Made by a program: the position numbers and the translations under genes
In this document: piece after piece, positions 33,125 to 44,819 of the stretch
Position numbering within the stretch: position 1 is the stretch's first letter
Layout: each line of letters opens with the position of its first letter
Assembly: GCA_963803925.1 (NCBI GenBank)
Contig: CAWDOM010000011.1
Span: forward strand, 49,949-113,948
Length of the DNA: 64,000 nt
Direction of reading: 5' to 3'
From: an uncultured Actinomycetota bacterium
GTDB taxonomy: Bacteria > Actinomycetota > Thermoleophilia > RBG-16-64-13
Notes under the pieces: model-generated
What the model saw: the letters and a program-made list of their open reading frames with translations, nothing else
Database searches by the model: none
Told to the model about the DNA's origin: nothing

Positions 33125-35230
33125 ATGGGCGAGGACCTCGGCGATCGGGTGGTCAGAACCATCTGCCAGGAGTGTGGCAATTCGTGCGGCATGTCGGTGC
33201 ATGTGGAGAACGGCCGGGCGGTGCGTGTCGAACCGGCGCCTGACTCTCGCGGAGCGTCGGCGAGATTCTGCCCGCGGGCGACGGCCGGTCTCGAGCGCCT
33301 CTATTCTCCCTACCGCCTTCTCTATCCGCTGAAGCGTCTGGGCGCCAAGGGAGAGGGCAGGTGGCAGCGCATCTCCTGGGATGAGGCTCTCGACACAGTG
33401 GCCGCCAGATTCCTGGCAGCCAAGCGCGACCACGGGGCCGAGTCGGTCGCTCTCGCCAAGGGCATCTACTGCAGGCAGGCCGACTGGGTCTCTCGCTTGG
33501 GCAACGCGTTCGGCACGCCCAATGTCACCAGCATCGACAACACGTGCTACGTGCCGAGCGCCGCCGGCAGGCTCATCACCTATGGTTTCGACGGCATGCC
33601 CGATCTGGCGGGGCGCCCCGAGTGCCTGCTGCTATGGGGCAACAGCCCGAACCCGCCGCTGCGACCGGGGGCCAAGCTCATCGTGGTCAATGTCCTCGAA
33701 ACGGCTGCGGCCAAACGGGCCGACGTGTGGCTGCGGCCTCGTCCCGGTAGCGATCTCGCCCTGGCACTCGCTATGCTCAACGTGATAGTCACCGAGCATC
33801 TCTACGACGAAACTTTCGTCGAGAACTGGACCGTCGGCTTCGACAGGCTGGCGGAGCACGTTCGCGACTACACGCCCGAGCTGACGGCCGAGATCACGTG
33901 GGTGCCCGCCGAGCGGGTCTACGAGGCGGCGCGCATGTTCGCCGCCGGCCGGCCTGGATGCCTGTGGAACGGCAACGCGAGCGACGACACCTACAACAGC
34001 ACCCAATGCGCCCGGGCCTTCGCCATACTGCAGGCGATCTGCGGCGATCTCGATGTGCCTGGAGGCACCTGCGAAGCTAGGGGAACCATACTTGGTGAGG
34101 GCACGGGGCGCGACATCCTCCGTCACATGCTGGCGCCCGAGCAGGAGGCGAAGAAGCTTGGAGCCGGCGCGGGCTACTTGCCTCCGACCGCGCTGTGGGA
34201 TTCGATCGTGTGGAAGCCGGTCGAGGTTCGGCCTCAACACGTGCTGACGGCCATTCTCGAGGAGGAGCCGTACCCGGTGAGGGTGCTGGGAGTCTTCGGC
34301 AGCAACCCCCTGCTCACCTGGAGCAACTCGCGGAGAGTCTACGAGGCCCTCAAGCGGGTGGACTTTCTCGTGGTCACCGACCTGGTGAAGACCCCGACTG
34401 CCGCGATGGCCGACATCGTGTTGCCGGCGGCTTCGTACCTGGAGACCGACGCGGTGCTGACCACGGGCCCGGGAGTTCGGGGCTGTCACCTCGAGGCGCA
34501 GCAGAGGGTGGTGCAGATTGGGGAATGCCGCTCCGACCTCGAGATCATTCGGGAGCTTGCCGACAGGCTGGGGCTCGCCGGCCTCTTCGCCCCCGATCTT
34601 GAAGGTCTTCTCGACCGGTACCTGGAGCCGATGGGCATGACTTTCGCCGAACTCCGTCGCTCGCCCGGCGTTGTCTCGTCGTCGGCCCGCTTCCGAAAGT
34701 TCACGGACGGAGGTTTCAACACCCCCTCGGGTAGGGTGGAGATCTATTCGAGTCTCTGCGAGCAATGGGGATACGAACCACTGCCCGTCTACCACGAGCC
34801 CGAAGAGACGCCGCTCAGCGCGCCGGAGTTGCTTGCCGAGTACCCACTGGTGCTGACGAACAGCCACGAAGCGGAGTACGTGCACTCACAAGATCGCTAT
34901 CTCGACGAGATCCGCGCGCTCAAACCCGAGCCACAGGTGATCATCCACCCGGAGACCGCCGCGACCCTCGGCATCGCCGAGAACGATCTGGTGTACATAG
35001 AGAGCAGGCGGGGCCGGATCGCGCAGAGGGCCACACTCGATGCCGGCATCGATCGCCGGGTTGTGAGCGTGGGCCACGGCTGGTGGTTCCCCGAAGAGGG
35101 CGAAGGCACGATGTTCGCGTGGGATAGGGCCAATCTGAACGTACTCACCGACGATGGCCCCCCGTATAGTCCCGAGATGGGCTCGCCGAAGATGCGGGGC
35201 TTTCTTTGCAGGGTATACAAGGCCGGATAG
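33125..35230 (+). CDS. Cytoplasmic molybdopterin (bis-MGD) oxidoreductase with an N-terminal [4Fe-4S] motif. Substrate unknown.
   Basis: CQECGNSCG...FCPR cluster motif, ISWDEALD, a candidate Mo-ligand region NTCYVPSAAG, and a C-terminal beta-barrel domain (VIIHPETAATLGIAENDLVYIESRRGRI). No Tat signal. Confidence 0.8.
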   Translation: MGEDLGDRVVRTICQECGNSCGMSVHVENGRAVRVEPAPDSRGASARFCPRATAGLERLYSPYRLLYPLKRLGAKGEGRWQRISWDEALDTVAARFLAAKRDHGAESVALAKGIYCRQADWVSRLGNAFGTPNVTSIDNTCYVPSAAGRLITYGFDGMPDLAGRPECLLLWGNSPNPPLRPGAKLIVVNVLETAAAKRADVWLRPRPGSDLALALAMLNVIVTEHLYDETFVENWTVGFDRLAEHVRDYTPELTAEITWVPAERVYEAARMFAAGRPGCLWNGNASDDTYNSTQCARAFAILQAICGDLDVPGGTCEARGTILGEGTGRDILRHMLAPEQEAKKLGAGAGYLPPTALWDSIVWKPVEVRPQHVLTAILEEEPYPVRVLGVFGSNPLLTWSNSRRVYEALKRVDFLVVTDLVKTPTAAMADIVLPAASYLETDAVLTTGPGVRGCHLEAQQRVVQIGECRSDLEIIRELADRLGLAGLFAPDLEGLLDRYLEPMGMTFAELRRSPGVVSSSARFRKFTDGGFNTPSGRVEIYSSLCEQWGYEPLPVYHEPEETPLSAPELLAEYPLVLTNSHEAEYVHSQDRYLDEIRALKPEPQVIIHPETAATLGIAENDLVYIESRRGRIAQRATLDAGIDRRVVSVGHGWWFPEEGEGTMFAWDRANLNVLTDDGPPYSPEMGSPKMRGFLCRVYKAG

Positions 35231-35281: not shown

Positions 35282-37468
35282 CTACTGCGGTACCGAAGCG
35301 TCCCCCTCGACGAGTTGCTTGATCTTGCAGAGCGAGTGGTTCCATACGACGTCGTGGGCGAACCTGGGAAAGAACCATCTGACGAGCGCCGAGAACGGCC
35401 GGCGGAGGAGCCCCCGTCCCGGGTTGAAGTCGAAGCCGACGTATGTGGTGAGCAGGTTCAGTCCCGGCTTGATCTCTCCGATGTCGAACGCGAACACGCC
35501 GCCCTGCCCGAACCCGCTGAGAATGCGGTAGAGCAGGTAGCGGCCCTCGACCACCCGCGTTAGGGCCAGATCGAACGACAGACCCAAGGGTACGATGTAG
35601 CGGATGGTGGTGCCCACTTCGTTCGGAGACCCCGCGGTTCTCGTGATCTTGATGAAGCGGGGCTTGAAGTAGGCTCGATCGGCGTCGCCGAACGCGCCCA
35701 GTTCGCGCACTATCGCCTCCCTTCCCGCGCGTATGCGGATGGAGAACAACCGCTCCACCTGCGGAGGCCGTTCTGGGGGGTCGAGGCCGAGCATGGAGAA
35801 GAGCTGCTGCCGCTTGGGTCCGACTTCTTCGGCGGGTACGCCCACCGGATAGCGCCCGACTTCTGACCAGTCGAGCCCGAAGACGAACTCGGTCAGGCGA
35901 TCGAGCAACGTCATGACCAGCCCGCCCACGAGAATCAGCCAGAGCGAGGCGGGATGCAGCATGCCCCGCAGTATGCTGGCGTAGCTGTCGTCGCCGCTGG
36001 CTATGTGCCAGAGCACTATCGAGAGTCGCCGCTTGCGGGGCATCCGGTCCATGCGCTCGCTGAACACAGCTCTGTAGAACACGCGGCTGAGCGCCGGCCG
36101 GCCGAACAGCGAGTGGCTGAGCGCGAAGATTACGCGTCCGTAGCGGTTGTCAGTCTGGAGTCGCTTGACGACCGGCTCGTAGCAGCGGGCCAGGGTCGCC
36201 CGGTCGATGCCCTGGTCGAGCGCGCAGTCGGCCACGGCCGAGGCTGTGACGTAGGCCGAGTAGAGCCCGTCCTTGTACAAGCGGGACACGGCCATGTCGC
36301 CAGTCAGCGCGATCCTCGAAGCAGAGGGGTGCCGGGCGGCTCCGACCGTCATGTTGGGGTGGCAACAGCAGCCGACCTCGACGTTCGCGTTCGGCGGAAG
36401 AAGACGGCGGATGTGGGGGAGTTCAAGGAAGCGGCGGACGATGGGAACGCAACTCGAGCTGGGCGCGTGGTCTACGGTCTTGCCGAGAAGCACTACCGTC
36501 ATCCACGTGTCTTTGGGTATGAGCGAAGCCATTTCGATCCGCAGGTCGGTGGAGCCGTGCTGCGCGAAGTGCACCTCTCCGTTCAACGGGACCATGAGAC
36601 CGTCTTCGGCGAGGATCTCGGCGATGACGGTCCGCCGCACTCTAGGGGGCCGCAGACCGGGCATGAGATCGCGCAGCGTGCTGAAGAGCGGATCGACTGT
36701 CAGGTCGGTGCCGGGCGAACGGTTCACACCCGCGGCTACGACCAAGAAGTCGGCCTCGATGGTCTCCGCGGCGGCCTCGTGACCCAGTATCGGTGTTCGA
36801 TACGTCACCACCGGGCGTCCCTCGTCGGAGTAGCGTACTTCATCGACCTCCGCCGTGATCACCTGGGCTCCCTCCTTGACCGCCGTGGCGAGCAAGAAGG
36901 TATCGAAGTTCTCGTAGCGGTCGGCGCGGCTGCGCGGACGCGAACCGCGGAACACCGAGTACATACGTCTGTCGGGCGGCACCGCCAGCGGGATGCTCTT
37001 CCAGTCGCCGTGGATGACCACCTCGTCGGCCTCGCTCTCGATCACCTCCCGCGGCGGGACGATCGCGTTCTCGACCAGGATGTCGTTCAACCGGGGCGAG
37101 ATGCCGCCCGCGCAGTAGTTGCAGCCCTCCCACGAGGTGAAGGGCGCCGGCGAGTAGAAGCAGATCTCGTTCTTGCGCTCGAGAACGATCACGCGCGGAG
37201 AGCGGCCGAGCGCGCGGGCTCTGCGCAAGAACCGTATGCAGAAGAACGAGCCGGCAGGGCCGCCGCCGACGACAACAACCGTTGCCGCGTCGGGCAGCGT
37301 CAGCCGCTCGGGCTTGGTCCTGCTGGTGAGGCTCGCGATGCGAGCGATGTCCGCCTCCCTGAGCGTCGTCTCGAGGAGCACCTGCCTGGGAGGGTAGCAC
37401 GCCCGCCGGCGCCCACGCGGCGGCGTGCGGAATCCGCGAGAGCGGACTCCCGCCGGCGGTGGTCGCAC
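35282..37468 (-). CDS. FAD-dependent oxidoreductase (geranylgeranyl-reductase-like N-terminal half) with a ~300-aa uncharacterised C-terminal extension. The start codon is uncertain.
   Basis: Dinucleotide-binding motif VVVVGGGPAGSFF. A long continuous 728-aa ORF whose C-terminal half I could not assign to any family. Confidence 0.6.
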   Translation of the reverse strand: MRPPPAGVRSRGFRTPPRGRRRACYPPRQVLLETTLREADIARIASLTSRTKPERLTLPDAATVVVVGGGPAGSFFCIRFLRRARALGRSPRVIVLERKNEICFYSPAPFTSWEGCNYCAGGISPRLNDILVENAIVPPREVIESEADEVVIHGDWKSIPLAVPPDRRMYSVFRGSRPRSRADRYENFDTFLLATAVKEGAQVITAEVDEVRYSDEGRPVVTYRTPILGHEAAAETIEADFLVVAAGVNRSPGTDLTVDPLFSTLRDLMPGLRPPRVRRTVIAEILAEDGLMVPLNGEVHFAQHGSTDLRIEMASLIPKDTWMTVVLLGKTVDHAPSSSCVPIVRRFLELPHIRRLLPPNANVEVGCCCHPNMTVGAARHPSASRIALTGDMAVSRLYKDGLYSAYVTASAVADCALDQGIDRATLARCYEPVVKRLQTDNRYGRVIFALSHSLFGRPALSRVFYRAVFSERMDRMPRKRRLSIVLWHIASGDDSYASILRGMLHPASLWLILVGGLVMTLLDRLTEFVFGLDWSEVGRYPVGVPAEEVGPKRQQLFSMLGLDPPERPPQVERLFSIRIRAGREAIVRELGAFGDADRAYFKPRFIKITRTAGSPNEVGTTIRYIVPLGLSFDLALTRVVEGRYLLYRILSGFGQGGVFAFDIGEIKPGLNLLTTYVGFDFNPGRGLLRRPFSALVRWFFPRFAHDVVWNHSLCKIKQLVEGDASVPQ

Positions 37469-37558: not shown

Positions 37559-39153
37559 CTAACTGTTGAGGATGGCCTCGGCTTCCTCGCGGTAGGCGTC
37601 CATGAGGTAGGGGATGCCGGTGACCTTGGCGCACTCCTCGGTGAGGCTCATCAGGTCCTCGCGGGCTGATCGCCGGGACGTTGAAGCAGCGGGCCCCGGC
37701 CATGAGCTGCTGCAGGCCGACTCGGAGCTTCTGCGCATAGCTGTAGATGCCGATGGCGCCCAGCGGGATGTTCTTCATCTCGTCCTTGCCGACGATGTCG
37801 ACCACTTCTTCGTAGCACACGAAGATCTCTTCGGGCGTGGTGCCGAACTGGCTGACGGTCTTGGGCAGGCCGCCGTTCTTCATCCACACGGCCGATGTTC
37901 TTGCCGACCATGCCGGGGATCATCAGGGCCCGGCCCATGCAGACGGCCTTGACGAACGGTGCGCCCAGGGCCAGGGCCTTGAAGATGTCGTCTTCGCTGC
38001 TGAAGCCGCCGGCAAAGGCGATGTCGGGCACGCGCTCGCCCCTCGCCGCCAGACTTGGCCGCGAACTCGGCCGCGGCCGCATGCAGGTAGAGGCTGGGCA
38101 TGCCCCATTCCTCCATCATGCGCCACGGGCTCATGCCGGTGCCGCCGGGAGCGCCGTCGATGGTCAGCAGGTCGATCTTGGCCTCGCAACCCCACTTGAT
38201 GGCCATGGCCAGCTCGCGCAGGCCGTACGCGCCGGTCTTCAGGGTGATCCGCTTGAAGCCGAGGTCGCGCAGCCGCTGGCACTCGGCGAGGAAGCCCTCT
38301 TCGTCGATGAAGCCGAGCCGGCTGTGGCGCTCGAATTCCTTGATCGCGCCGTCTTTGAAGGCGGCCTGAGTGATGGGATCGGACGGATCGGGCGTGACGA
38401 TGTAGCCGCGCTTCTGCAGTTCCAGCGCCCGTTCGAGGCGAGTCGACCTTGATCTCGCCGCCGATGCACTTGGCGCCCTGGCCCCACTTCAGCTCGATGG
38501 TCTCGAGCCGTGCTTCTTGATGACGTATTCGGCCACTCCCAGACGGGTGTCCTCGACGTTCATCTGGACGAGGATCTCGCCGTAGCCGCGATGGTAGCGC
38601 GATAGGTCTCGATGCGGCGGTCCATGTCCGGGCGCGAAGCTGACCTTGCCCTGCGCGTCGAACTCGAGCTCGGGTCGATGCCCGCACACGTTCTCGCCGC
38701 AGACCAGGGTGACACCGCTGATGGCCGCGCCCACGGCGAAGTGCTCCCAGTTCTTCCGGGCGATCTCGGTGGAGCCGAGCGCCCCGGTGAACACGGGCGC
38801 CAGCATCTTGACCTTGTTGTCCCAGCCGTACTCGGTCTGCACGCTCACGCGGGGAACGTGCATGTGTCGGAGTTGGCCTCCACTCCTTCGGGCAGACCCT
38901 CGCCGCCCAGCGCGTAGCCCTGGATGTTCAGGTGGGAGTAGTCGATCGGGTAGTCCTTGTCGCCTCCGGCGGTTATCTCGCCGAAGGGTCCGGGGTAGAT
39001 GAGCTCGCGGCCACGGAAGGTGGCCTTGAAGACCTCGCAGTTGCCGCTGCAGCCGTCGATGCAGCGAGTGCAGAGGCCCGAGCCGGGGACCACGCTGCGC
39101 GAGCGGTTCGACGTCTGGGAAACGTCATTCGCATTGGGTTGCTGTAGATTCAC
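37559..39153 (-). pseudogene. Archaeal-type glutamate-synthase large-subunit-like FMN protein (GltB domain family), broken by about eight frame shifts
   Basis: Homologous segments are spread over all three frames: CTRCIDGCSGNCEVF / LAPVFTGALGSTEIA...VQMNVEDTRLGVAEYVIKKHG / ETIELKWGQGAKCIGGEIKV / LERALELQKRGYIV...KRITLKTGAYGLRELAMAIKWGCEAKIDLLTIDGAPGGTGMSPW / ERVPDIAFAGGFSSEDDIFKALALGAPFVKAVCMGRA / WMKNGGLPKTVSQFGTT...LQQLMAGARCFNV / EDLMSLTEECAKVTGIPYLMDAYREEAEAILNS, ending at the stop. Confidence 0.7.
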
Positions 39154-39181: not shown

Positions 39182-39889
39182 TTAACGTGTCGAAAGCAGA
39201 CCGCGCAACTGCCACTGCGCGCACTGGAAACCTCGTCCCAGCTCGCACTGGATGCACGTGTCGGGGATGTTCTCGACCATCGAGCGCTGCGATTCGCAGA
39301 GACCGCAGATGTAACCCTCAGACCGGGGTCCGGGGCACGGGGTGATGGTCATGGGGCAGACCTCGACGCAGTTGTGGCAGCGCTTGCAGAGGTCGGGCCG
39401 TTGGTAGAAGGGGAGGGCGACATGCCGGTCGCTGCCCCTGCCCACAAAGCCGAGCGAGTGCGACTGCCAGATCTCTCCGCACACCCGGACGCACCGGCCG
39501 CAGAGAACGCAGTCGTGGTTGCGCAGGGGGTAGCGCGAGCGTGTCACGCCCACACGCGCGGCCAGGTCTTGAATGGCCCGTGAGTTGGGCGCTTCCGCCA
39601 GCAGCAACTCGACGATGTTCCTGCGGGCGCGCACGGCCGCTTCGGAGTGGGCCTCGACGACGAGTCCTTCGCGGGCCTCCAGGGTGCACGACGCGGTCAT
39701 CGTGCGCCGGCCGCCCTCCACCACCTCGGCGATGCACACCCGGCAGGCCCCGCTGGGGCTCACGCCGGGCATGTGGCACAGGTTGGGAATGCAGATTCCG
39801 ACAGACAGGGCCGCGTCGAGCACGCTCGAACCCTCGAGAGCGCTGATCGTCGCCCCGTCTACCGTGATAGTCACCATCTTCTTTGCCAT
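39182..39889 (-). CDS. [2Fe-2S] plus [4Fe-4S] ferredoxin-like protein resembling the N-terminal module of NuoG/HndD
   Basis: AAGGAGG RBS. MAKKMVTITVDGATISALEGSSVLDAAL...CHMPGVSPSGACRVC...CVLCGRCVRVC...CKRCHNCVEVCP. Confidence 0.75.
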   Translation of the reverse strand: MAKKMVTITVDGATISALEGSSVLDAALSVGICIPNLCHMPGVSPSGACRVCIAEVVEGGRRTMTASCTLEAREGLVVEAHSEAAVRARRNIVELLLAEAPNSRAIQDLAARVGVTRSRYPLRNHDCVLCGRCVRVCGEIWQSHSLGFVGRGSDRHVALPFYQRPDLCKRCHNCVEVCPMTITPCPGPRSEGYICGLCESQRSMVENIPDTCIQCELGRGFQCAQWQLRGLLSTR

Positions 39890-39900
39890 GGCTGCCTCCT

Positions 39901-41745
39901 TCAGGTCCTGCTGATAGCTTCGGAGGGGCAGGCGTCGACACAGATGCCGCACCTCTGGCAGAGCTCTGGGACGATGCGGAAGGCGTCGTCTTCGACGATG
40001 GCCGCGTGCGGGCAGGCGTCGGTGCACGAGCCGCACATGGTGCAGAGGTCGGGGTCGATCTCGTACGTCGACAGCGCCGTGCAGACTCCGGCCGGACAGA
40101 CATGGCTCTCGATGTGCGCCTTGTACTCGTCTTCGAAGTAGCGGAGCGTAGAGAGCACCGGGTTGGCCGCCGTCTTGCCGAGCGCGCAGAGCGAGCCGAC
40201 CGACATGGTCCAGGCCAGGTCTTTGAGAGTCTCGAGTTGCTCCTTGCGGCCTCGTCCCTCGGTGATATCGGTGAGGATCTCGAGCATGCGGTCGGTGCCC
40301 AACCGGCAGGGCGTGCACTTGCCGCACGACTCCTCATTGAGGAACTTCATGAAGTACTTCGCCACATCGACCATGCAGGCCGAGCTGTCCATGACCACCA
40401 TGCCGCCCGAGCCCATCATCGATCCGGCCTGAGAGAGCGCCTCGTAGTCTACGGGCAGGTCGAACAGCGAGGCGGGTAGGCAACCACCAGAGGGGCCGCC
40501 GGTCTGCACCGCCTTGATCGGCTTGCCGTTCTGCTGGCCTCCACCGATGTCGAACACGATCTCACGGAGCGGTGTGCCCATCTCGACCTCGATGAGCCCC
40601 GTGTTCTTCACCTGGCCGGTGAGGGCGAAGACCTTGGTGCCTTTGCTGAGCTCGGTGCCCTTCGCGGCGAACCAGGCGGCTCCGTTGGAGACGATCTTCG
40701 GCACGTTGGCCCAGGTCTCCACGTTGTTGAGGTCGGTGGGTTGATCGAGGTAGCCGCGCTCCACGGTGTGGATGTCTTTGGCCCGTGGTTCGCCGACCTC
40801 GCCCTGGAGCGAAGCCATGAGGGCCGTCGACTCTCCGCACACGAACGCTCCGCCGCCGCGGGCCACTTTGACGTCGAAGTCCAGGCCAGAACCAAGGATG
40901 TTCTCGCCCAGCAGGCCGTACTCGCGCGCCTGCTCTATGGCCCGGCGGACGTGCTCGACCGCGAGGGGGTACTCGTTGCGCACATACACGTAACCCTTAG
41001 CTGCTCCTATGGCATGGGCGCCGATGATCATCCCCTCGAGCACCGAGTGCGGATTGCCCTCGAGAAGGCTGCGATCCATGTACGCTCCGGGGTCGCCCTC
41101 GTCGGCGTTGCACACCACGTAGCGTGTCGATCCGGCCGCGGCGCGGGTCTGAGCCCACTTCCTGCCGGTCGGGTAGCCGCCGCCGCCCCGGCCTCTCAGG
41201 CCTGAGGCGCTGATCTCGGCGATGACTGTCTCGGGGTCGAGCAGGAGCGCCTTGGCGAGGGCGTCGTAGCCGCCGGCCGCTATGTAGTCGTCGATACTGG
41301 TCGGCGCTAGACGGCGGTTGTCGGCCATGAGACAGCGCTGCTGGGCCGCATAGAACGGGATGTCGGCCTCGTGCTGCACGGTCTTGCCCGACACTGGGTC
41401 GATGTACAGCAACTCTTCGACGGTCTCGCCGTTCACTAGGGTGCGCGACACGATCTCGGGCACATCCTCCGGCCGGATATGGCGGTAGAAGATGCCCGCG
41501 GGCTCGATGATCGCGAGAGGGCCCTGTTCGCAGAAGCCGTGGCACCCGGTGAGACGGAGCAGGACCCTGTCGTTCAGACCGTTCTGCTCGAGTGCCTCGG
41601 CCATGGCCTCGGCGACCGGTAAGCAGCCACAGGCGCGACACGCGGTGCCGGCGCACATGGTCACGGTCAGTTCGTACGCGTCGCGCTTCTCGGCCAGCTC
41701 ACGCCGGTGATCGGCGAGCGACTTCATGTCGGGAAGTTTAGGCAT
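39901..41745 (-). CDS. NuoF/HndC-like NAD(H)-binding FMN/Fe-S flavoprotein with an N-terminal thioredoxin-like [2Fe-2S] domain and C-terminal 2x[4Fe-4S]
   Basis: GLRGRGGGGYPTGRKW (FMN/NADH site), ESCGKCTPCRLG, and the C-terminal CTMCGSCTDACP...CQRCGICVDACP. The start at 41745 overlaps the upstream stop; an alternative ATG exists at 41775. Confidence 0.85.
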   Translation of the reverse strand: MPKLPDMKSLADHRRELAEKRDAYELTVTMCAGTACRACGCLPVAEAMAEALEQNGLNDRVLLRLTGCHGFCEQGPLAIIEPAGIFYRHIRPEDVPEIVSRTLVNGETVEELLYIDPVSGKTVQHEADIPFYAAQQRCLMADNRRLAPTSIDDYIAAGGYDALAKALLLDPETVIAEISASGLRGRGGGGYPTGRKWAQTRAAAGSTRYVVCNADEGDPGAYMDRSLLEGNPHSVLEGMIIGAHAIGAAKGYVYVRNEYPLAVEHVRRAIEQAREYGLLGENILGSGLDFDVKVARGGGAFVCGESTALMASLQGEVGEPRAKDIHTVERGYLDQPTDLNNVETWANVPKIVSNGAAWFAAKGTELSKGTKVFALTGQVKNTGLIEVEMGTPLREIVFDIGGGQQNGKPIKAVQTGGPSGGCLPASLFDLPVDYEALSQAGSMMGSGGMVVMDSSACMVDVAKYFMKFLNEESCGKCTPCRLGTDRMLEILTDITEGRGRKEQLETLKDLAWTMSVGSLCALGKTAANPVLSTLRYFEDEYKAHIESHVCPAGVCTALSTYEIDPDLCTMCGSCTDACPHAAIVEDDAFRIVPELCQRCGICVDACPSEAISRT

Positions 41746-42250
41746 GGGCCGCCACCTCGACTCCCTCTGGGGCATCTTGACCGGCTTCCTGGTCGGCCGC
41801 GCGCACATCCTTGAGAAGCTGCGAAAGCTTCTCGGCGTTCACGTGGTCGTGATAGACACCGTCGAGTACGACGACCGGGCCGAGCGCACACGCGCCCAAG
41901 CAGTTGACCGTCTCGAGGGTGAAGGCCCCGTCGGCGGTGGTGCATCCCGGCTCGATATCGAGCCGGGCGGTGAGCTCGTCGAGCAGCCTGGGCGCCCCGC
42001 GGACATGGCAGGCGGTACCGTCACATACCGTGAGCACGTGGCGTCCCCTGCGGACCAAGCTGAAGGCTTTATAGAAGTTCGCCAATCTGAACACTTCGAT
42101 CAGCGGGACTTCAAACGATTCGGCTACACGACGGAGCGCTTCCTCGGGCAGGTACCCGAACGACGCCTGCACGTCTTGCAAGACCTCCATGATGTCGAAC
42201 GGCTCGAGGCCGCGGTTCTCGAGGATGGTCTCTAGGTCACTCAACTCCAT
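41738..42250 (-). CDS. NuoE/HndA-like thioredoxin-fold [2Fe-2S] subunit
   Basis: GGAGGAGG RBS before the ATG at 42250. VLTVCDGTACHVRGA...ETVNCLGACALGP. Confidence 0.85.
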   Translation of the reverse strand: MELSDLETILENRGLEPFDIMEVLQDVQASFGYLPEEALRRVAESFEVPLIEVFRLANFYKAFSLVRRGRHVLTVCDGTACHVRGAPRLLDELTARLDIEPGCTTADGAFTLETVNCLGACALGPVVVLDGVYHDHVNAEKLSQLLKDVRAADQEAGQDAPEGVEVAAHA

Positions 42251-42429
42251 GGCCTCCTCCAAGTGCTCGGATGCGTGCGCCGCTCTCGCCACGGACCCTC
42301 CGTGCCTTGCGCCCAGCGGCTGGTCGTTGCCGACCAACATACAGTGCGACTACCGGCGGTCGCTCGGAGCCAGCTTTCACGGTGGTTTGCGCCCTGTCTG
42401 CGGCTTGTCCACCACTTCGCCCACGCTAG

Positions 42430-42653
42430 CGGCATCACATTGCCGTGCAATGTAGCAATACGGAAAGAGATTAGCAAGATTAGCAGCGATAACCTGACCG
42501 CGGCGTTGACGACAATACGGCCGAATTGCCGCAACCAAGCGGCAACCTGACACGACAGGTATCTGCCGCATAGAGCGGGTCTTGAGGGCTTACGAGGTTG
42601 TGAACGAGCCTCAGTACGGGCCAAACAGCCGCCGTATACCGGCAAAATTGCCG
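42430..42653. promoter_or_regulatory. Set of related palindromes (CGGCA-N6-TGCCG at 42430..42445, CGGCCGAATTGCCG at 42518..42531, CGGCAAAATTGCCG at 42640..42653) in the 447-nt divergent region between the NuoE-like operon and the NrpR-like gene
   Basis: Read directly. ATTGCCG recurs three times. There are also direct repeats ATTAGCA(A/G) at 42470..42486 and GCAACC at 42531/42541. Confidence 0.4.
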
Positions 42654-42697
42654 CTTCGCGCCCGTCAGACCGGCACGTTTCTGGTAGGATATGCGGC

Positions 42698-43708
42698 ATG
42701 AGGGAGCGAACCGAAGAGAAGCGCACCGCGATCTTGCGCATCCTCCGTGAGGCCGAGAAGCCCCTCGGCAGCTCGAGGATAACCGAGCGGCTGGCCGCCA
42801 TGGGCCACGACATCAGCGAGAGGACGGTCAGGTTCCACCTGCTCGACATGGACAAGCTGGGCTGGACTCAGAATCTCGGCAGGCACGGCCGCTCGATCAC
42901 CCAGCGCGGACTGAACGAGCTCGACGATACGAGGGGCTTCGAGAAGGTGGGCATCTTGTCGGCCAAGATCGACCAGATGACCTACAAGATGGATTTCGAC
43001 CTCGTCAAGAAGACCGGCACCGTGGTGGTCAACGTCAGCGTCATCCCTCGCGATCAACTCGAGCGCTCGATCCCCCTCATGACCCAGGTCTTCTCCGCCG
43101 GCTACGCCATGGGCAAGCTGATCGGGTTCCTGCGGCCGGGCGAGCAGATCGGCAAGATGGCCGTACCCGAGGGGAGCATCGGCATCGCCACCGTCTGCTC
43201 GATCACGGTGAACGGCGTGCTGGTGGCTCACGGCATTCCTACCAACTCGCGCTTCGGGGGCCTGCTCGAACTCCGCGACCACAAGGCTGTGCGCTTCGCC
43301 GAGTTCATCAACTACGACGGCACCACCCTCGATCCCCTGGAGATCTTCATACGTAGTGTCATGACCGACTACGTCGGCGCCACTCGTAACGGCAACGGGC
43401 TCATCGGAGCGAGCTTTCGCGAAGTGCCCGCCGACAGCCGCGATCATGTGCTGGAGCTGGCCCTCCAGATGGAGAAGGTAGGGCTCGGCGCCATCTCGAT
43501 GGTGGGGTGGCCGGGACAGCAGCTGCTCGAGATACCCGTGAGCGAGGGCCGTCTGGGTATCGTGGTGATCGGCGGGCTCAATCCGGTGGCCATTCTCGAG
43601 GAGAAGGGCATCCGTGTCTACCGCACCGGCGCGCTGGCCGGCCTAATCGACTACGACCGGCTTTTCAGCTACGAGGAGTTGAGCGAGCAGGCCCGGGCGC
43701 TCGACTGA
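42698..43708 (+). CDS. nrpR: NrpR-like transcriptional repressor (winged HTH plus two DUF128/NrpR regulatory domains)
   Basis: ILRILREAEKPLGSSRITERL...ISERTVRFHLLDMD...GIATVCSITVNGVLVAHGIPTNSRFGGLLEL...INYDGTTLDPLEIFI...GASFREVP...IGGLNPVAILEEKGI. This matches my memory of the euryarchaeal NrpR family. Confidence 0.8.
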   Translation: MRERTEEKRTAILRILREAEKPLGSSRITERLAAMGHDISERTVRFHLLDMDKLGWTQNLGRHGRSITQRGLNELDDTRGFEKVGILSAKIDQMTYKMDFDLVKKTGTVVVNVSVIPRDQLERSIPLMTQVFSAGYAMGKLIGFLRPGEQIGKMAVPEGSIGIATVCSITVNGVLVAHGIPTNSRFGGLLELRDHKAVRFAEFINYDGTTLDPLEIFIRSVMTDYVGATRNGNGLIGASFREVPADSRDHVLELALQMEKVGLGAISMVGWPGQQLLEIPVSEGRLGIVVIGGLNPVAILEEKGIRVYRTGALAGLIDYDRLFSYEELSEQARALD

Positions 43709-43769: not shown

Positions 43770-44819
43770 CTACTCGCCGGGCGGCGCCCAGCTCGCCACG
43801 TACTCCAGACCCGCTCGTCCCCCCTCGCCGGTCTCACCGGGCGCCGGCGGGTCGACCACCCAGCCGCCGGACAGCCCCCGCTCACGTGCGACCAGGTCGA
43901 AGTGGCACATGGCGATGCCCATGTCGACACGCTGCAGGTCGGCGAGGCGCAAGAGCGCGAAGGTAGCGGTGCCTTTGCCGTAGCCCTTGGTGCGTTGCAG
44001 ATAGAAGTGCCAGGTCTCGCCGCGCCTGAGGATGCGCCATGGCTGTTTGTTCGACGCCGACGGGGCCCAGCGCAGCGCATCGAGAACGGGGGCGAACGCG
44101 GCGGCTCCGGGGTCTGTGTTCGGAGCGGCCGTCGCTGCCGCGTGGGTGCCGGCCGCGGCCCGGGTCCCGGCGGCGGTCCCGGCGGCGCCGGCCCCGGCCG
44201 CGCCGCCCACGCCCGCACTCGCGCCGCCCACGCCCGCCCCCGCGGGTTCGAGCGGCTGCTCGAACGTGCCGTCGAAGAAGAGCTGCTCGGGCGGCAGCCG
44301 GTGGTGGCTGCCGGCCTTCTGTCTCGCCCACGCTTTCTTGCTGCCCTCGGTCGGGTAGCCCACCGCCGCGACCGCCGGCACGATGTCGTCGCGGGTCGCG
44401 CCGATCTTGCGCGCGAACGAGCTCTTGCTGAAGGTGCCACCGAGCCAGCAGGTCTGCAGGCCGAGATCGGTCGCGGCAAGCACAGCGTGCTCGAGCGAGT
44501 AGCCGTAGTCCTCGAGGTCCTTGGGAGCGCGCTCAGCCGCTCCGACCAGGAATCCCGGGGCGTCCTTGATGAAGCCGTAGGTGCCCAGGCCTTTCAGCGA
44601 CGCCCTGTCGTCGGCCGTGGCGGCCACGAGCGACACACGCACCCGGCTGCCGAGCGGCCCGGGATCGAGTGTGGCGAGGAACGCCTCGAGCTCCCGCTGG
44701 ACGGCATCGTCGATAGGCTGGTCGACGTAGGCTCGACAGGAGTATCGGCGGCTCACCAGCTCCGAAATGGGGCTTCTCAAGGTATTCCTCCTGCATTCTC
44801 GCTCGCACAATGTTGTCAA
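43770..44819 (-). CDS. Nitroreductase-family protein carrying a ~55-aa Ala/Gly/Thr-rich low-complexity insert. An alternative TTG start at 44780 follows AGGAGGAA.
   Basis: RRYSCRAYVDQPI...ASLKGLGTYGFIKDAPGFLV...LEHAVLAATDLGLQTCWLGG...ALRWAPSASNKQPW. The insert is encoded by short tandem DNA repeats at 44163..44237. Confidence 0.75.
   Translation of the reverse strand: MTTLCERECRRNTLRSPISELVSRRYSCRAYVDQPIDDAVQRELEAFLATLDPGPLGSRVRVSLVAATADDRASLKGLGTYGFIKDAPGFLVGAAERAPKDLEDYGYSLEHAVLAATDLGLQTCWLGGTFSKSSFARKIGATRDDIVPAVAAVGYPTEGSKKAWARQKAGSHHRLPPEQLFFDGTFEQPLEPAGAGVGGASAGVGGAAGAGAAGTAAGTRAAAGTHAAATAAPNTDPGAAAFAPVLDALRWAPSASNKQPWRILRRGETWHFYLQRTKGYGKGTATFALLRLADLQRVDMGIAMCHFDLVARERGLSGGWVVDPPAPGETGEGGRAGLEYVASWAPPGE

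Follow-up and report, generated by a model that had tools for sequence, protein, structure and literature searches.

The window analysed here is a stretch of 64,000 nucleotides from an uncultured soil bacterium of the Actinomycetota (assembly GCA_963803925.1, contig CAWDOM010000011.1, positions 49,949 to 113,948). It carries a gene for an NrpR-family regulator, nrpR, transcribed divergently from an operon in which three electron-transfer genes (bfuC, bfuB and bfuA) are followed by a gene whose product resembles the flavin mononucleotide (FMN) domain of the glutamate synthase large subunit GltB (hereafter the GltB-like gene). A divergent spacer of 446 bp (42252-42697) separates nrpR from bfuC. 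The genes and the predicted regulatory elements are as follows:

42698-43708, plus strand: nrpR, an NrpR-family regulator of 336 amino acids (aa) with a winged helix-turn-helix and one NRD1_2 unit (Pfam).
41738-42251, minus strand: bfuC (NuoE/HydC-like), a thioredoxin-like [2Fe-2S] protein of about 171 aa; the reading frame is open to 42340.
39901-41745, minus strand: bfuB (NuoF/HydB-like), 614-635 aa; the reading frame extends to 41808 and the start at 41745 is placed by comparison with the orthologue.
39182-39889, minus strand: bfuA (minimal HoxU/NuoG-N-terminal-like), 235 aa, with a [2Fe-2S] motif, two CxxCxxCxxxC motifs and a Cys-rich tail.
37559-39153, minus strand: the GltB-FMN-domain-like gene, which contains ten single-base insertions or deletions (indels) and is defined by comparison with an intact orthologue.
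42640-42653, no strand: predicted operator O1, CGGCAAAATTGCCG, a perfect 14-bp palindrome with its GGCA core 57 nt before the nrpR ATG.
42518-42531, no strand: predicted operator O2, CGGCCGAATTGCCG, with one mismatch, at about -180 from the nrpR ATG (about -190 in relatives).
42430-42445, no strand: predicted operator O3, CGGCATCACATTGCCG, a 16-bp N6 form that overlaps the predicted start of the divergent operon.
42449-42477, minus strand: predicted promoter of bfuCBA and the GltB-like gene, with a -35 box TTGCTA (42477-42472), a 17-nt spacer and an extended -10 box TGCTACATT (42457-42449).
42682-42690, plus strand: a possible -10-like box of the extended type, TGGTAGGAT, which stops 7 nt short of the nrpR ATG.

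The regulator is a genuine member of the NrpR family. Its HTH_12 domain (residues 11-75) scores 62 bits against a Pfam cut-off of 21.4, the NRD1_2 domain (PF01995) scores 268.2 bits against a cut-off of 25 and covers model positions 1-236 of 238, and the solved NrpR-like domain 3NEK is matched with 87.6 bits; the homology proposed in an earlier sequence-only reading of this DNA is thus borne out. No other PF01995 gene is present in the whole assembly (3.29 Mb in 14 contigs, 88% complete). The same reading had regarded an archaeal-type NrpR as unusual in a bacterial genome, and this must be abandoned: bacterial homologues form more than 3000 clusters at E<=1e-3, the best 120 of them share 61-88% identity with the window protein, and the named matches are spread across many phyla. 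With homologues so abundant, "archaeal-type" overstates the oddity and the bacterial host is no anomaly.

To our knowledge, NrpR has been studied solely in methanogens, where the Methanococcus-type operator is GGAA-N6-TTCC. The archaeal proteins (Methanococcus maripaludis NrpR, Methanosarcina mazei NrpRI) are euryarchaeal repressors of nif and glnA that are released by 2-oxoglutarate. The window protein shares with them the Pfam architecture (winged helix-turn-helix plus NRD1_2) and the likeness to 3NEK and, as in their case, several predicted palindromic operators and nitrogen-assimilation genes adjoin it. It differs from them in its bacterial host and its predicted sigma-70-type promoter, in a half-site that reads GGCA/TGCC with N4 and N6 spacers instead of GGAA-N6-TTCC, and in its target, a single divergent gene or operon (the GltB-like gene with or without the Bfu genes, or a glutamate dehydrogenase (GDH) gene) rather than nif, glnA or amt. 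Apparently, each bacterial regulator serves one locus, unlike its archaeal counterparts.

The operators were compared across 80 NrpR loci from many phyla, taken from contigs with one genome per species. The sequence ATTGCCG/CGGCAAT occurs upstream of nrpR in 60 of the 80. The 450 nt before nrpR are also enriched in GGCA-N4-TGCC sites whose centre is rich in A and T, their density there being 84 times that in the remainder of the loci. This 14-bp form keeps fixed positions, at about -190 and, in the majority of the loci, at about -58, and it is found in GltB-like, Bfu and GDH loci alike. The 16-bp form, GGCA-N6-TGCC, lies directly after a target-facing -35/-10 pair, whatever the partner gene, and 62 such sites were counted in the 80 loci together with the window. 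With half-sites of this kind, the bacterial sites differ from the methanogen operator; the spacer contains no GGAA-N6-TTCC and the window a single one, inside bfuA at 39786 (chance 0.52). A consensus promoter scanner found nothing in the spacer, and the promoter calls rest on cross-locus conservation: both leftward boxes are kept in an alignment of nine relatives and across phyla, while in the TGGTAGGAT box the GGTA is invariant and the A/T positions are nearly invariant among aligned relatives. Leftward transcription is predicted to start inside O3, and the nrpR transcript is possibly leaderless.

Elsewhere in the genome the perfect O1 14-mer does not recur. Two copies of GGCAATATTGCC (contig C11, positions 31577 and 36140) were considered as NrpR sites and rejected, as they lie inside a coding-looking inverted duplication. 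This duplication, upstream of the window (C11:31427-31737 and 35990-36300), is 310 bp long and 93% identical, with one GGCAATATTGCC in each copy, and the two copies are likely paralogous coding segments. Other non-coding GGCA-Nx-TGCC sites, which might have extended the regulon, were discarded because of their GC-rich spacers. For the bfuC leader, which is roughly 190 nt long, a riboswitch or an attenuator was also considered and dropped (no Rfam match at E<=1, fold z-score of 0.02).

What lies next to nrpR in the 80 loci may be listed as follows:

GltB-like gene directly divergent from nrpR: 32 loci.
BfuC-B-A together with the GltB-like gene: 18 loci.
Glutamate dehydrogenase in the same place (Pfam ELFV_dehydrog): 18 loci.
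Bfu genes without a GltB-like gene within the available sequence: 2 loci (L020 and L067).
Neither within the available sequence: 2 loci (L013, a truncated contig with BfuC/B, and L021).
Upstream sequence too short: 8 loci.

The GltB-like gene is therefore the commonest bacterial neighbour of nrpR (50 of 80 loci), and BfuCBA accompanies it in 18 of those 50. A GltB-like gene and a GDH gene were never found together at any of the 80 loci. Where the Bfu genes are present with the GltB-like gene, the order BfuC-B-A plus GltB-like is constant even though the set stands in several arrangements relative to nrpR, GltB-like identities range from 46 to 100%, and the 18 loci span at least five phylum labels and two divergent GltB-like clades. 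At the other extreme there are minimal cassettes of nrpR and a GltB-like gene amid unrelated neighbours, suggesting that the FMN enzyme can work without Bfu. In a tree of the NrpR proteins, built without an archaeal outgroup, the partner was exchanged for one of another type at least eight times, counting branches with good support, and some sister pairs have different partners (L015, with Bfu and GltB-like genes, against L016, with GDH; L070 against L078).

The gene conserved as the partner of NrpR is thus the GltB-like one (or GDH), with the NuoEF-like module as an optional add-on. The sequence-only reading had paired NrpR with the NuoEF-like operon: the conserved gene order in 18 loci supports the association as such, but the module is missing from most loci with a GltB-like gene. 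Its broader suggestion, that the pairing of regulator and target points to nitrogen assimilation, is supported by the GltB-like and GDH neighbours (50 and 18 of the 80 loci), by ammonium transporter (Amt) genes at one locus and by predicted operators on the target promoter. The nrpR-gdhA pairs resemble the nrpR-GltB-like pairs in their divergent position, their operators and their promoter-operator layout, which argues for the same physiological job, although GDH itself is an unrelated protein, with the ELFV dehydrogenase fold, direct use of pyridine nucleotides, no Fe-S clusters or FMN and no Bfu partner.

A few individual loci deserve mention. In a Phycisphaerae metagenome-assembled genome (MAG), bfuC-bfuB-bfuA and then two Amt genes lie on one strand opposite nrpR (L020:574-4085), with no GltB-like gene within 8 kb. 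Two MAGs each contain two nrpR paralogues (L032 and L061 in JBLIRO01, L031 and L062 in CAYZZY01); in both, the GltB-like gene beside one paralogue stands alone and is about 68% identical to the reference, and the other paralogue is accompanied by BfuCBA and a divergent GltB-like gene (about 46%). The NrpR of a 2.5-kb contig from an Asgard bin, labelled Promethearchaeota (L053), hardly differs from the one in a Thermodesulfobacteriota MAG (L065; branch lengths of 0.03-0.05), and the contig is probably bacterial and mis-binned.

The genes opposite nrpR encode NuoE-, NuoF- and NuoG-N-terminal-like proteins, as the sequence-only reading had it, with Pfam hits at the coordinates listed above. BfuC matches 2Fe-2S_thioredx (PF01257) with 149.8 bits, and its start is likely at 42251, where GGAGG precedes the ATG and the product has the 171 aa of its orthologue. 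The Pfam domains of BfuB are an N-terminal 2Fe-2S thioredoxin-like domain, Complex1_51K, SLBB, NADH_4Fe-4S and two C-terminal Fer4 motifs. BfuB has an FMN/NADH site and matches solved bifurcating complexes over its full length (760.8 bits for 9MQX_B, 709.8 for 7T2R_B and 706.9 for 8A6T_B), and its Cys motifs, those of the N-terminal [2Fe-2S], the NuoF [4Fe-4S] and the two C-terminal [4Fe-4S] clusters, are all aligned with those of BfuB/HydB; complex I NuoF and Nqo1 are matched with about 330-350 bits and over the core alone. Because of this end-to-end match to solved electron-bifurcating complexes, we prefer the names BfuC, BfuB and BfuA to Nuo-like ones. BfuA contains Fer2_4, Fer4_7 and Fer4_Nqo3 (Pfam), and its best match is the 247-aa minimal BfuA 9MQX_A (119 bits), a component of the "electron-bifurcating plug" described for WOR-Bfu (PMC12318220). 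It has no catalytic domain and, by inspection, no His-ligated cluster motif, consistent with Type 2. The genes of the operon lie close together, with an 8-nt overlap of bfuC and bfuB, a gap of 11 nt from bfuB to bfuA, and one of 28 nt from bfuA to the GltB-like gene, which is preceded by an AAGGAG ribosome-binding site.

From its motifs, the NuoE/NuoF/ferredoxin trio would match electron-bifurcating BfuCBA (HydCBA-type) modules exactly in its cofactor architecture. By the Bfu family criteria set out in a survey of the family (PMC9304861), the operon is predicted to be a BfuBC core with a Type-2-like BfuA that takes a separate third-substrate subunit. Like the known BfuABC/HydABC modules (WOR-Bfu 9MQX, NiFe-HydABCSL 7T2R, HydABC 8A6T and NfnABC 9N5U), it combines a BfuB that aligns at full length with all cluster motifs and a BfuC that carries the [2Fe-2S] domain; its BfuA is minimal and free of a catalytic domain, like 9MQX_A and the Type 2 enzymes of the survey. 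It departs from these modules in its presumed third-substrate subunit, a TIM-barrel FMN protein from the same superfamily as the glutamate synthase FMN domain. The Stn/NfnABC transhydrogenases (PMC7483475) also join a NuoEF-type core to a protein of the glutamate synthase system, but their partner resembles the small subunit GltD (flavin adenine dinucleotide/NADPH) whereas the partner in the window is like the FMN domain found in the large subunit, GltB.

Orthologues of the GltB-like protein are stand-alone proteins of about 530 aa (525-535 aa), annotated as "FMN-binding glutamate synthase family protein". The family is large, at least 8000 members, since all 8000 scored candidates pass E<=1e-5. 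The best 120 of them are 78-94% identical and come from bins labelled Actinomycetota, Planctomycetota, Methylomirabilales and Dehalococcoidales, with about 80% identity between Actinomycetota- and Planctomycetota-labelled bins. Pfam PF01645 (Glu_synthase) matches an intact orthologue (P0121) with 48.9 bits against a cut-off of 20.4, the match being partial (model positions 197-309 of 369); FMN_dh gives a weak match, and NCBIfam holds no model for the protein. An AlphaFold2 model is a TIM barrel (pLDDT 77), and the glutamate synthase (GltS) FMN domain 1OFD is among its Foldseek matches (TM-score 0.46, 17% identity). Two family-invariant segments, ELKWGQGAK.IGGE and DGAPGGTGMSP, have their counterparts in IKIAQGAKPGEGG and DGGTGAAP, which belong to a canonical GltB from a genus relative. 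In addition, 21 aligned members share the invariant cysteines C28, C31, C35 and C39, which form an N-terminal CxxCxxxCxxxC motif. By Pfam the protein is without the amidotransferase, central and GXGXG domains, and neither PF00310 (amidotransferase) nor PF01493 (GXGXG) is found in the whole assembly.

Its domain content thus marks the predicted protein as a distant FMN-domain homologue and not a true glutamate synthase. With the FMN domain of GltB and of ferredoxin-dependent GltS (PDB 1OFD, 1LLW, 1EA0) it shares the TIM barrel, a PF01645 match above the cut-off and the QGAK and DG..GGTG..SP loops; it differs in standing alone at about 530 aa, without the amidotransferase, central and GXGXG domains, and in having the N-terminal CxxCxxxCxxxC in place of Cx5Cx4CP. 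When the sequence-only reading placed a GltB-like FMN protein at the end of the operon, it was right about the homology of the FMN domain, but the other defining parts of glutamate synthase are missing and the PF01645 match is partial.

We consider it fairly probable that a repressor, presumably responsive to 2-oxoglutarate, controls here a Bfu-coupled, ammonia-dependent glutamate-forming enzyme. NrpR would bind the three palindromes of the spacer and repress both the leftward operon and itself: O3 would cover the leftward transcription start, while O2 and O1, the 14-bp CGGCA-N4-TGCC sites toward nrpR, would probably let NrpR bind cooperatively and regulate its own gene. If it behaves like archaeal NrpR, whose binding to nif and glnA promoters depends on 2-oxoglutarate (PMC9765008), the repressor would be released by 2-oxoglutarate. 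The product of the GltB-like gene, a putative Fe-S/FMN TIM-barrel enzyme of about 530 aa beside an NADH/ferredoxin core, would carry out the reductive amination of 2-oxoglutarate with free ammonia, reducing the imine to glutamate. As a stand-alone enzyme it may draw electrons from ferredoxin and, with BfuCBA, from NADH, possibly together with ferredoxin (bifurcation or confurcation). The flavin enzyme probably makes glutamate. We assign the 2-oxoglutarate/glutamate chemistry mainly because of the repeated in-place exchange with GDH, which is among the stronger kinds of comparative evidence, and we read it as reductive amination because (i) GDH occupies the same regulated position and (ii) the QGAK and DG..GGTG..SP loops are kept.

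The redox couple of glutamate and 2-oxoglutarate plus ammonia lies at about -130 mV, far above NADH. Bifurcation would therefore need NADH as the donor, with iminoglutarate accepting electrons at high potential and ferredoxin at low potential. The energetics of this speculative scheme would roughly balance, but the arrangement is not the usual one for Bfu enzymes.

A number of observations weigh against a glutamate-forming enzyme under NrpR control. PDB sequence searches with the GltB-like protein or a 21-member profile retrieved no glutamate synthase, returning nothing or only de novo TIM barrels, and hhalign gave a probability of only 10% for the alignment to one canonical FMN domain. Foldseek places lactate monooxygenase, glycolate oxidase, IDI-2 and IMPDH at a level similar to that of GltS (TM-scores of 0.36-0.46), and the 3Fe-4S motif Cx5Cx4CP of canonical GltB is absent from all 21 aligned family members. 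Genus relatives with the GltB-like gene often carry a canonical 1500-aa GltB too, so that the protein is not a simple replacement for glutamate synthase (GOGAT), and the genome of the window has a further GDH gene on contig C14 with no operator there. The genome holds no second convincing operator cluster, and NrpR looks here like a local rather than a global nitrogen regulator. The potential of the glutamate/2-oxoglutarate couple does not fit the usual Bfu third substrate, which is of intermediate potential. Finally, the literature searched contained no paper on any bacterial NrpR and no biochemical data for the GltB-like family.

Some of these points would be explained if the regulation were as described but the FMN enzyme acted on another 2-oxo, 2-hydroxy or imino acid (e.g. 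2-hydroxyglutarate or an amino-acid-derived imine) and NrpR sensed a different ligand. We find this somewhat unlikely. It would suit the Foldseek ranking, in which alpha-hydroxy-acid oxidases and lactate monooxygenase stand slightly above glutamate synthase, as well as the weak FMN_dh match, the invariant N-terminal CxxCxxxCxxxC found in place of the 3Fe-4S motif, and the co-occurrence of the GltB-like gene with canonical GltB and GDH in the same genomes. It does not readily account for GDH alone replacing the gene at the NrpR position, repeatedly and never alongside it, for the Amt genes in the same operon at L020, or for the invariance of the QGAK loop and DG..GGTG..SP throughout the family. 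One may also ask whether BfuCBA belongs with the GltB-like protein at all, rather than serving a nearby molybdopterin oxidoreductase, as in Bfu enzymes of the formate dehydrogenase (Fdh) type, or acting alone as an NADH:ferredoxin module. A 701-aa Mo-bisPGD oxidoreductase is indeed encoded 4 kb away (33125-35230), Fdh-type Bfu enzymes are common (PMC9304861), and in L067 and L020 Bfu genes adjoin nrpR with no GltB-like gene within the available sequence. But the oxidoreductase gene lies on the opposite strand and is absent from orthologous loci, its product reaches no NCBIfam cut-off (251 bits against 666 for Fdh-alpha), and the order bfuC-bfuB-bfuA-GltB-like is kept in 18 loci, with gaps of at most 28 nt or overlaps in the window; we regard such a partnership, or an independent module, as very improbable.

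The GltB-like gene is not intact in the assembly. It had been placed within 39182-43708, with no mention of frame damage; it actually occupies 37559-39153, its conserved peptide segments are spread over three frames and no single open reading frame covers it. An intact 530-aa orthologue is present in L002/L003, a relative with 84% identity in NrpR; compared with it, the gene has 1-nt deletions after 38850, 38602 and 38508, 1-nt insertions at 38629, 38438, 38053, 37891 and 37665, and, within 38669-38686, a +1 and a -1 that compensate each other. The indels are most likely errors of long-read metagenome assembly and not biology, and this is favoured for four reasons. (i) Once they are removed, the ratio of non-synonymous to synonymous substitution rates (dN/dS) against L003 is 0.12, close to intact orthologue pairs (0.07-0.11) and to the neighbouring nrpR and bfuA (0.08-0.14), and the amino-acid identity is about 82%, as in intact orthologues. 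(ii) A codon-position hidden Markov model, which recovers the breaks in the GltB-like gene, counts about 573 frame switches genome-wide, on the same strand and over 15 nt away from a stop, with a density of 0.17 per kb and strong clustering. (iii) The sole glutamine synthetase gene (PF00120, glnA; C8:21413-22394) is split over three frames with an in-frame TGA, a damage that is probably of the same kind. (iv) The closest relatives, which are long-read MAGs (isolate names MFD...), have one or two frameshifts in bfuB or in the GltB-like gene. Patches of frame switches were seen, for instance, at C7:35000-40000 (ten) and C9:140000-145000 (eight); a looser metric, coding segments without a 3' stop, was dropped because it flagged 1828 of 3292 segments.

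The other way to read the indels is that the GltB-like gene is a genuine pseudogene in a decaying NrpR/Bfu locus, perhaps because the GDH on C14 suffices. Ten indels in 1.6 kb between an open 1.8-kb bfuB and an open 2.2-kb flavoprotein gene, and the mismatch of O2 to the consensus, would agree with such decay. No sequencing run containing the window was found either: in a search of sequencing runs the GltB-like stretch matched only conserved words of its relatives (<=0.10) and bfuB matched none, which would be compatible with a very recent pseudogene. Natural decay, however, is expected to bring many more substitutions than indels, and the four points above speak against it; we therefore hold a pseudogene to be quite improbable. 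The broken GltB-like and glnA genes are a caution that gene-loss claims from long-read MAGs need read support.

Two things appear to be new at this locus, namely a bacterial NrpR circuit that has an operator code of its own and a Bfu module whose partner is new. If the proposed function of the circuit is true, NrpR is a widespread bacterial regulator, with GGCA-N4/N6-TGCC as its code, dedicated to the step from 2-oxoglutarate to glutamate, and an abundant, conserved and uncharacterised "FMN-binding glutamate synthase family protein" gains a functional hypothesis. The Bfu family would likewise gain a biosynthetic member tied to nitrogen assimilation; no such partner is described in the published survey (PMC9304861), and neither "glutamate" nor "GltB" is found in its text or its searched supplement. 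It is tempting to go further and to see in the family of about 530 aa a third, unrecognised route of ammonium assimilation in anaerobes. This would be a glutamate synthase that is driven by ferredoxin, depends on ammonia but not on ATP, and is interchangeable with GDH under the control of NrpR and 2-oxoglutarate. Its Bfu-linked form would bifurcate electrons from NADH between an exergonic step, the reduction of iminoglutarate, and an endergonic one, that of ferredoxin; glutamate synthesis would then conserve energy and define a new functional Bfu class. As a whole, we think this wider proposal unlikely.

The region has a G+C content of 64-67% and contains many spurious open reading frames. Three further genes surround the locus:

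33125-35230, plus strand: molybdopterin (bis-PGD) oxidoreductase, 701 aa, with PhsA-like and Fdh-alpha-like best hits; convergent to the flavoprotein gene.
35282-37468, minus strand: flavoprotein, 728 aa; its N-terminal half is of the geranylgeranyl-reductase-like FAD type, and about 300 residues at the C-terminus are without assignment.
43770-44819, minus strand: TM1586-type nitroreductase (Pfam, 108 bits).

The flavoprotein and the nitroreductase were considered as parts of the system and rejected, both being absent at orthologous loci. The flavoprotein gene starts about 90 nt past the GltB-like gene, with a weak hairpin between the two. The nitroreductase gene fills a 1.36-kb stretch between nrpR and a thiolase gene, a stretch that is absent in the closest relative, where nrpR and the thiolase gene are about 100 nt apart. 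At another locus (L083), an unrelated nitroreductase adjoins the GltB-like gene.

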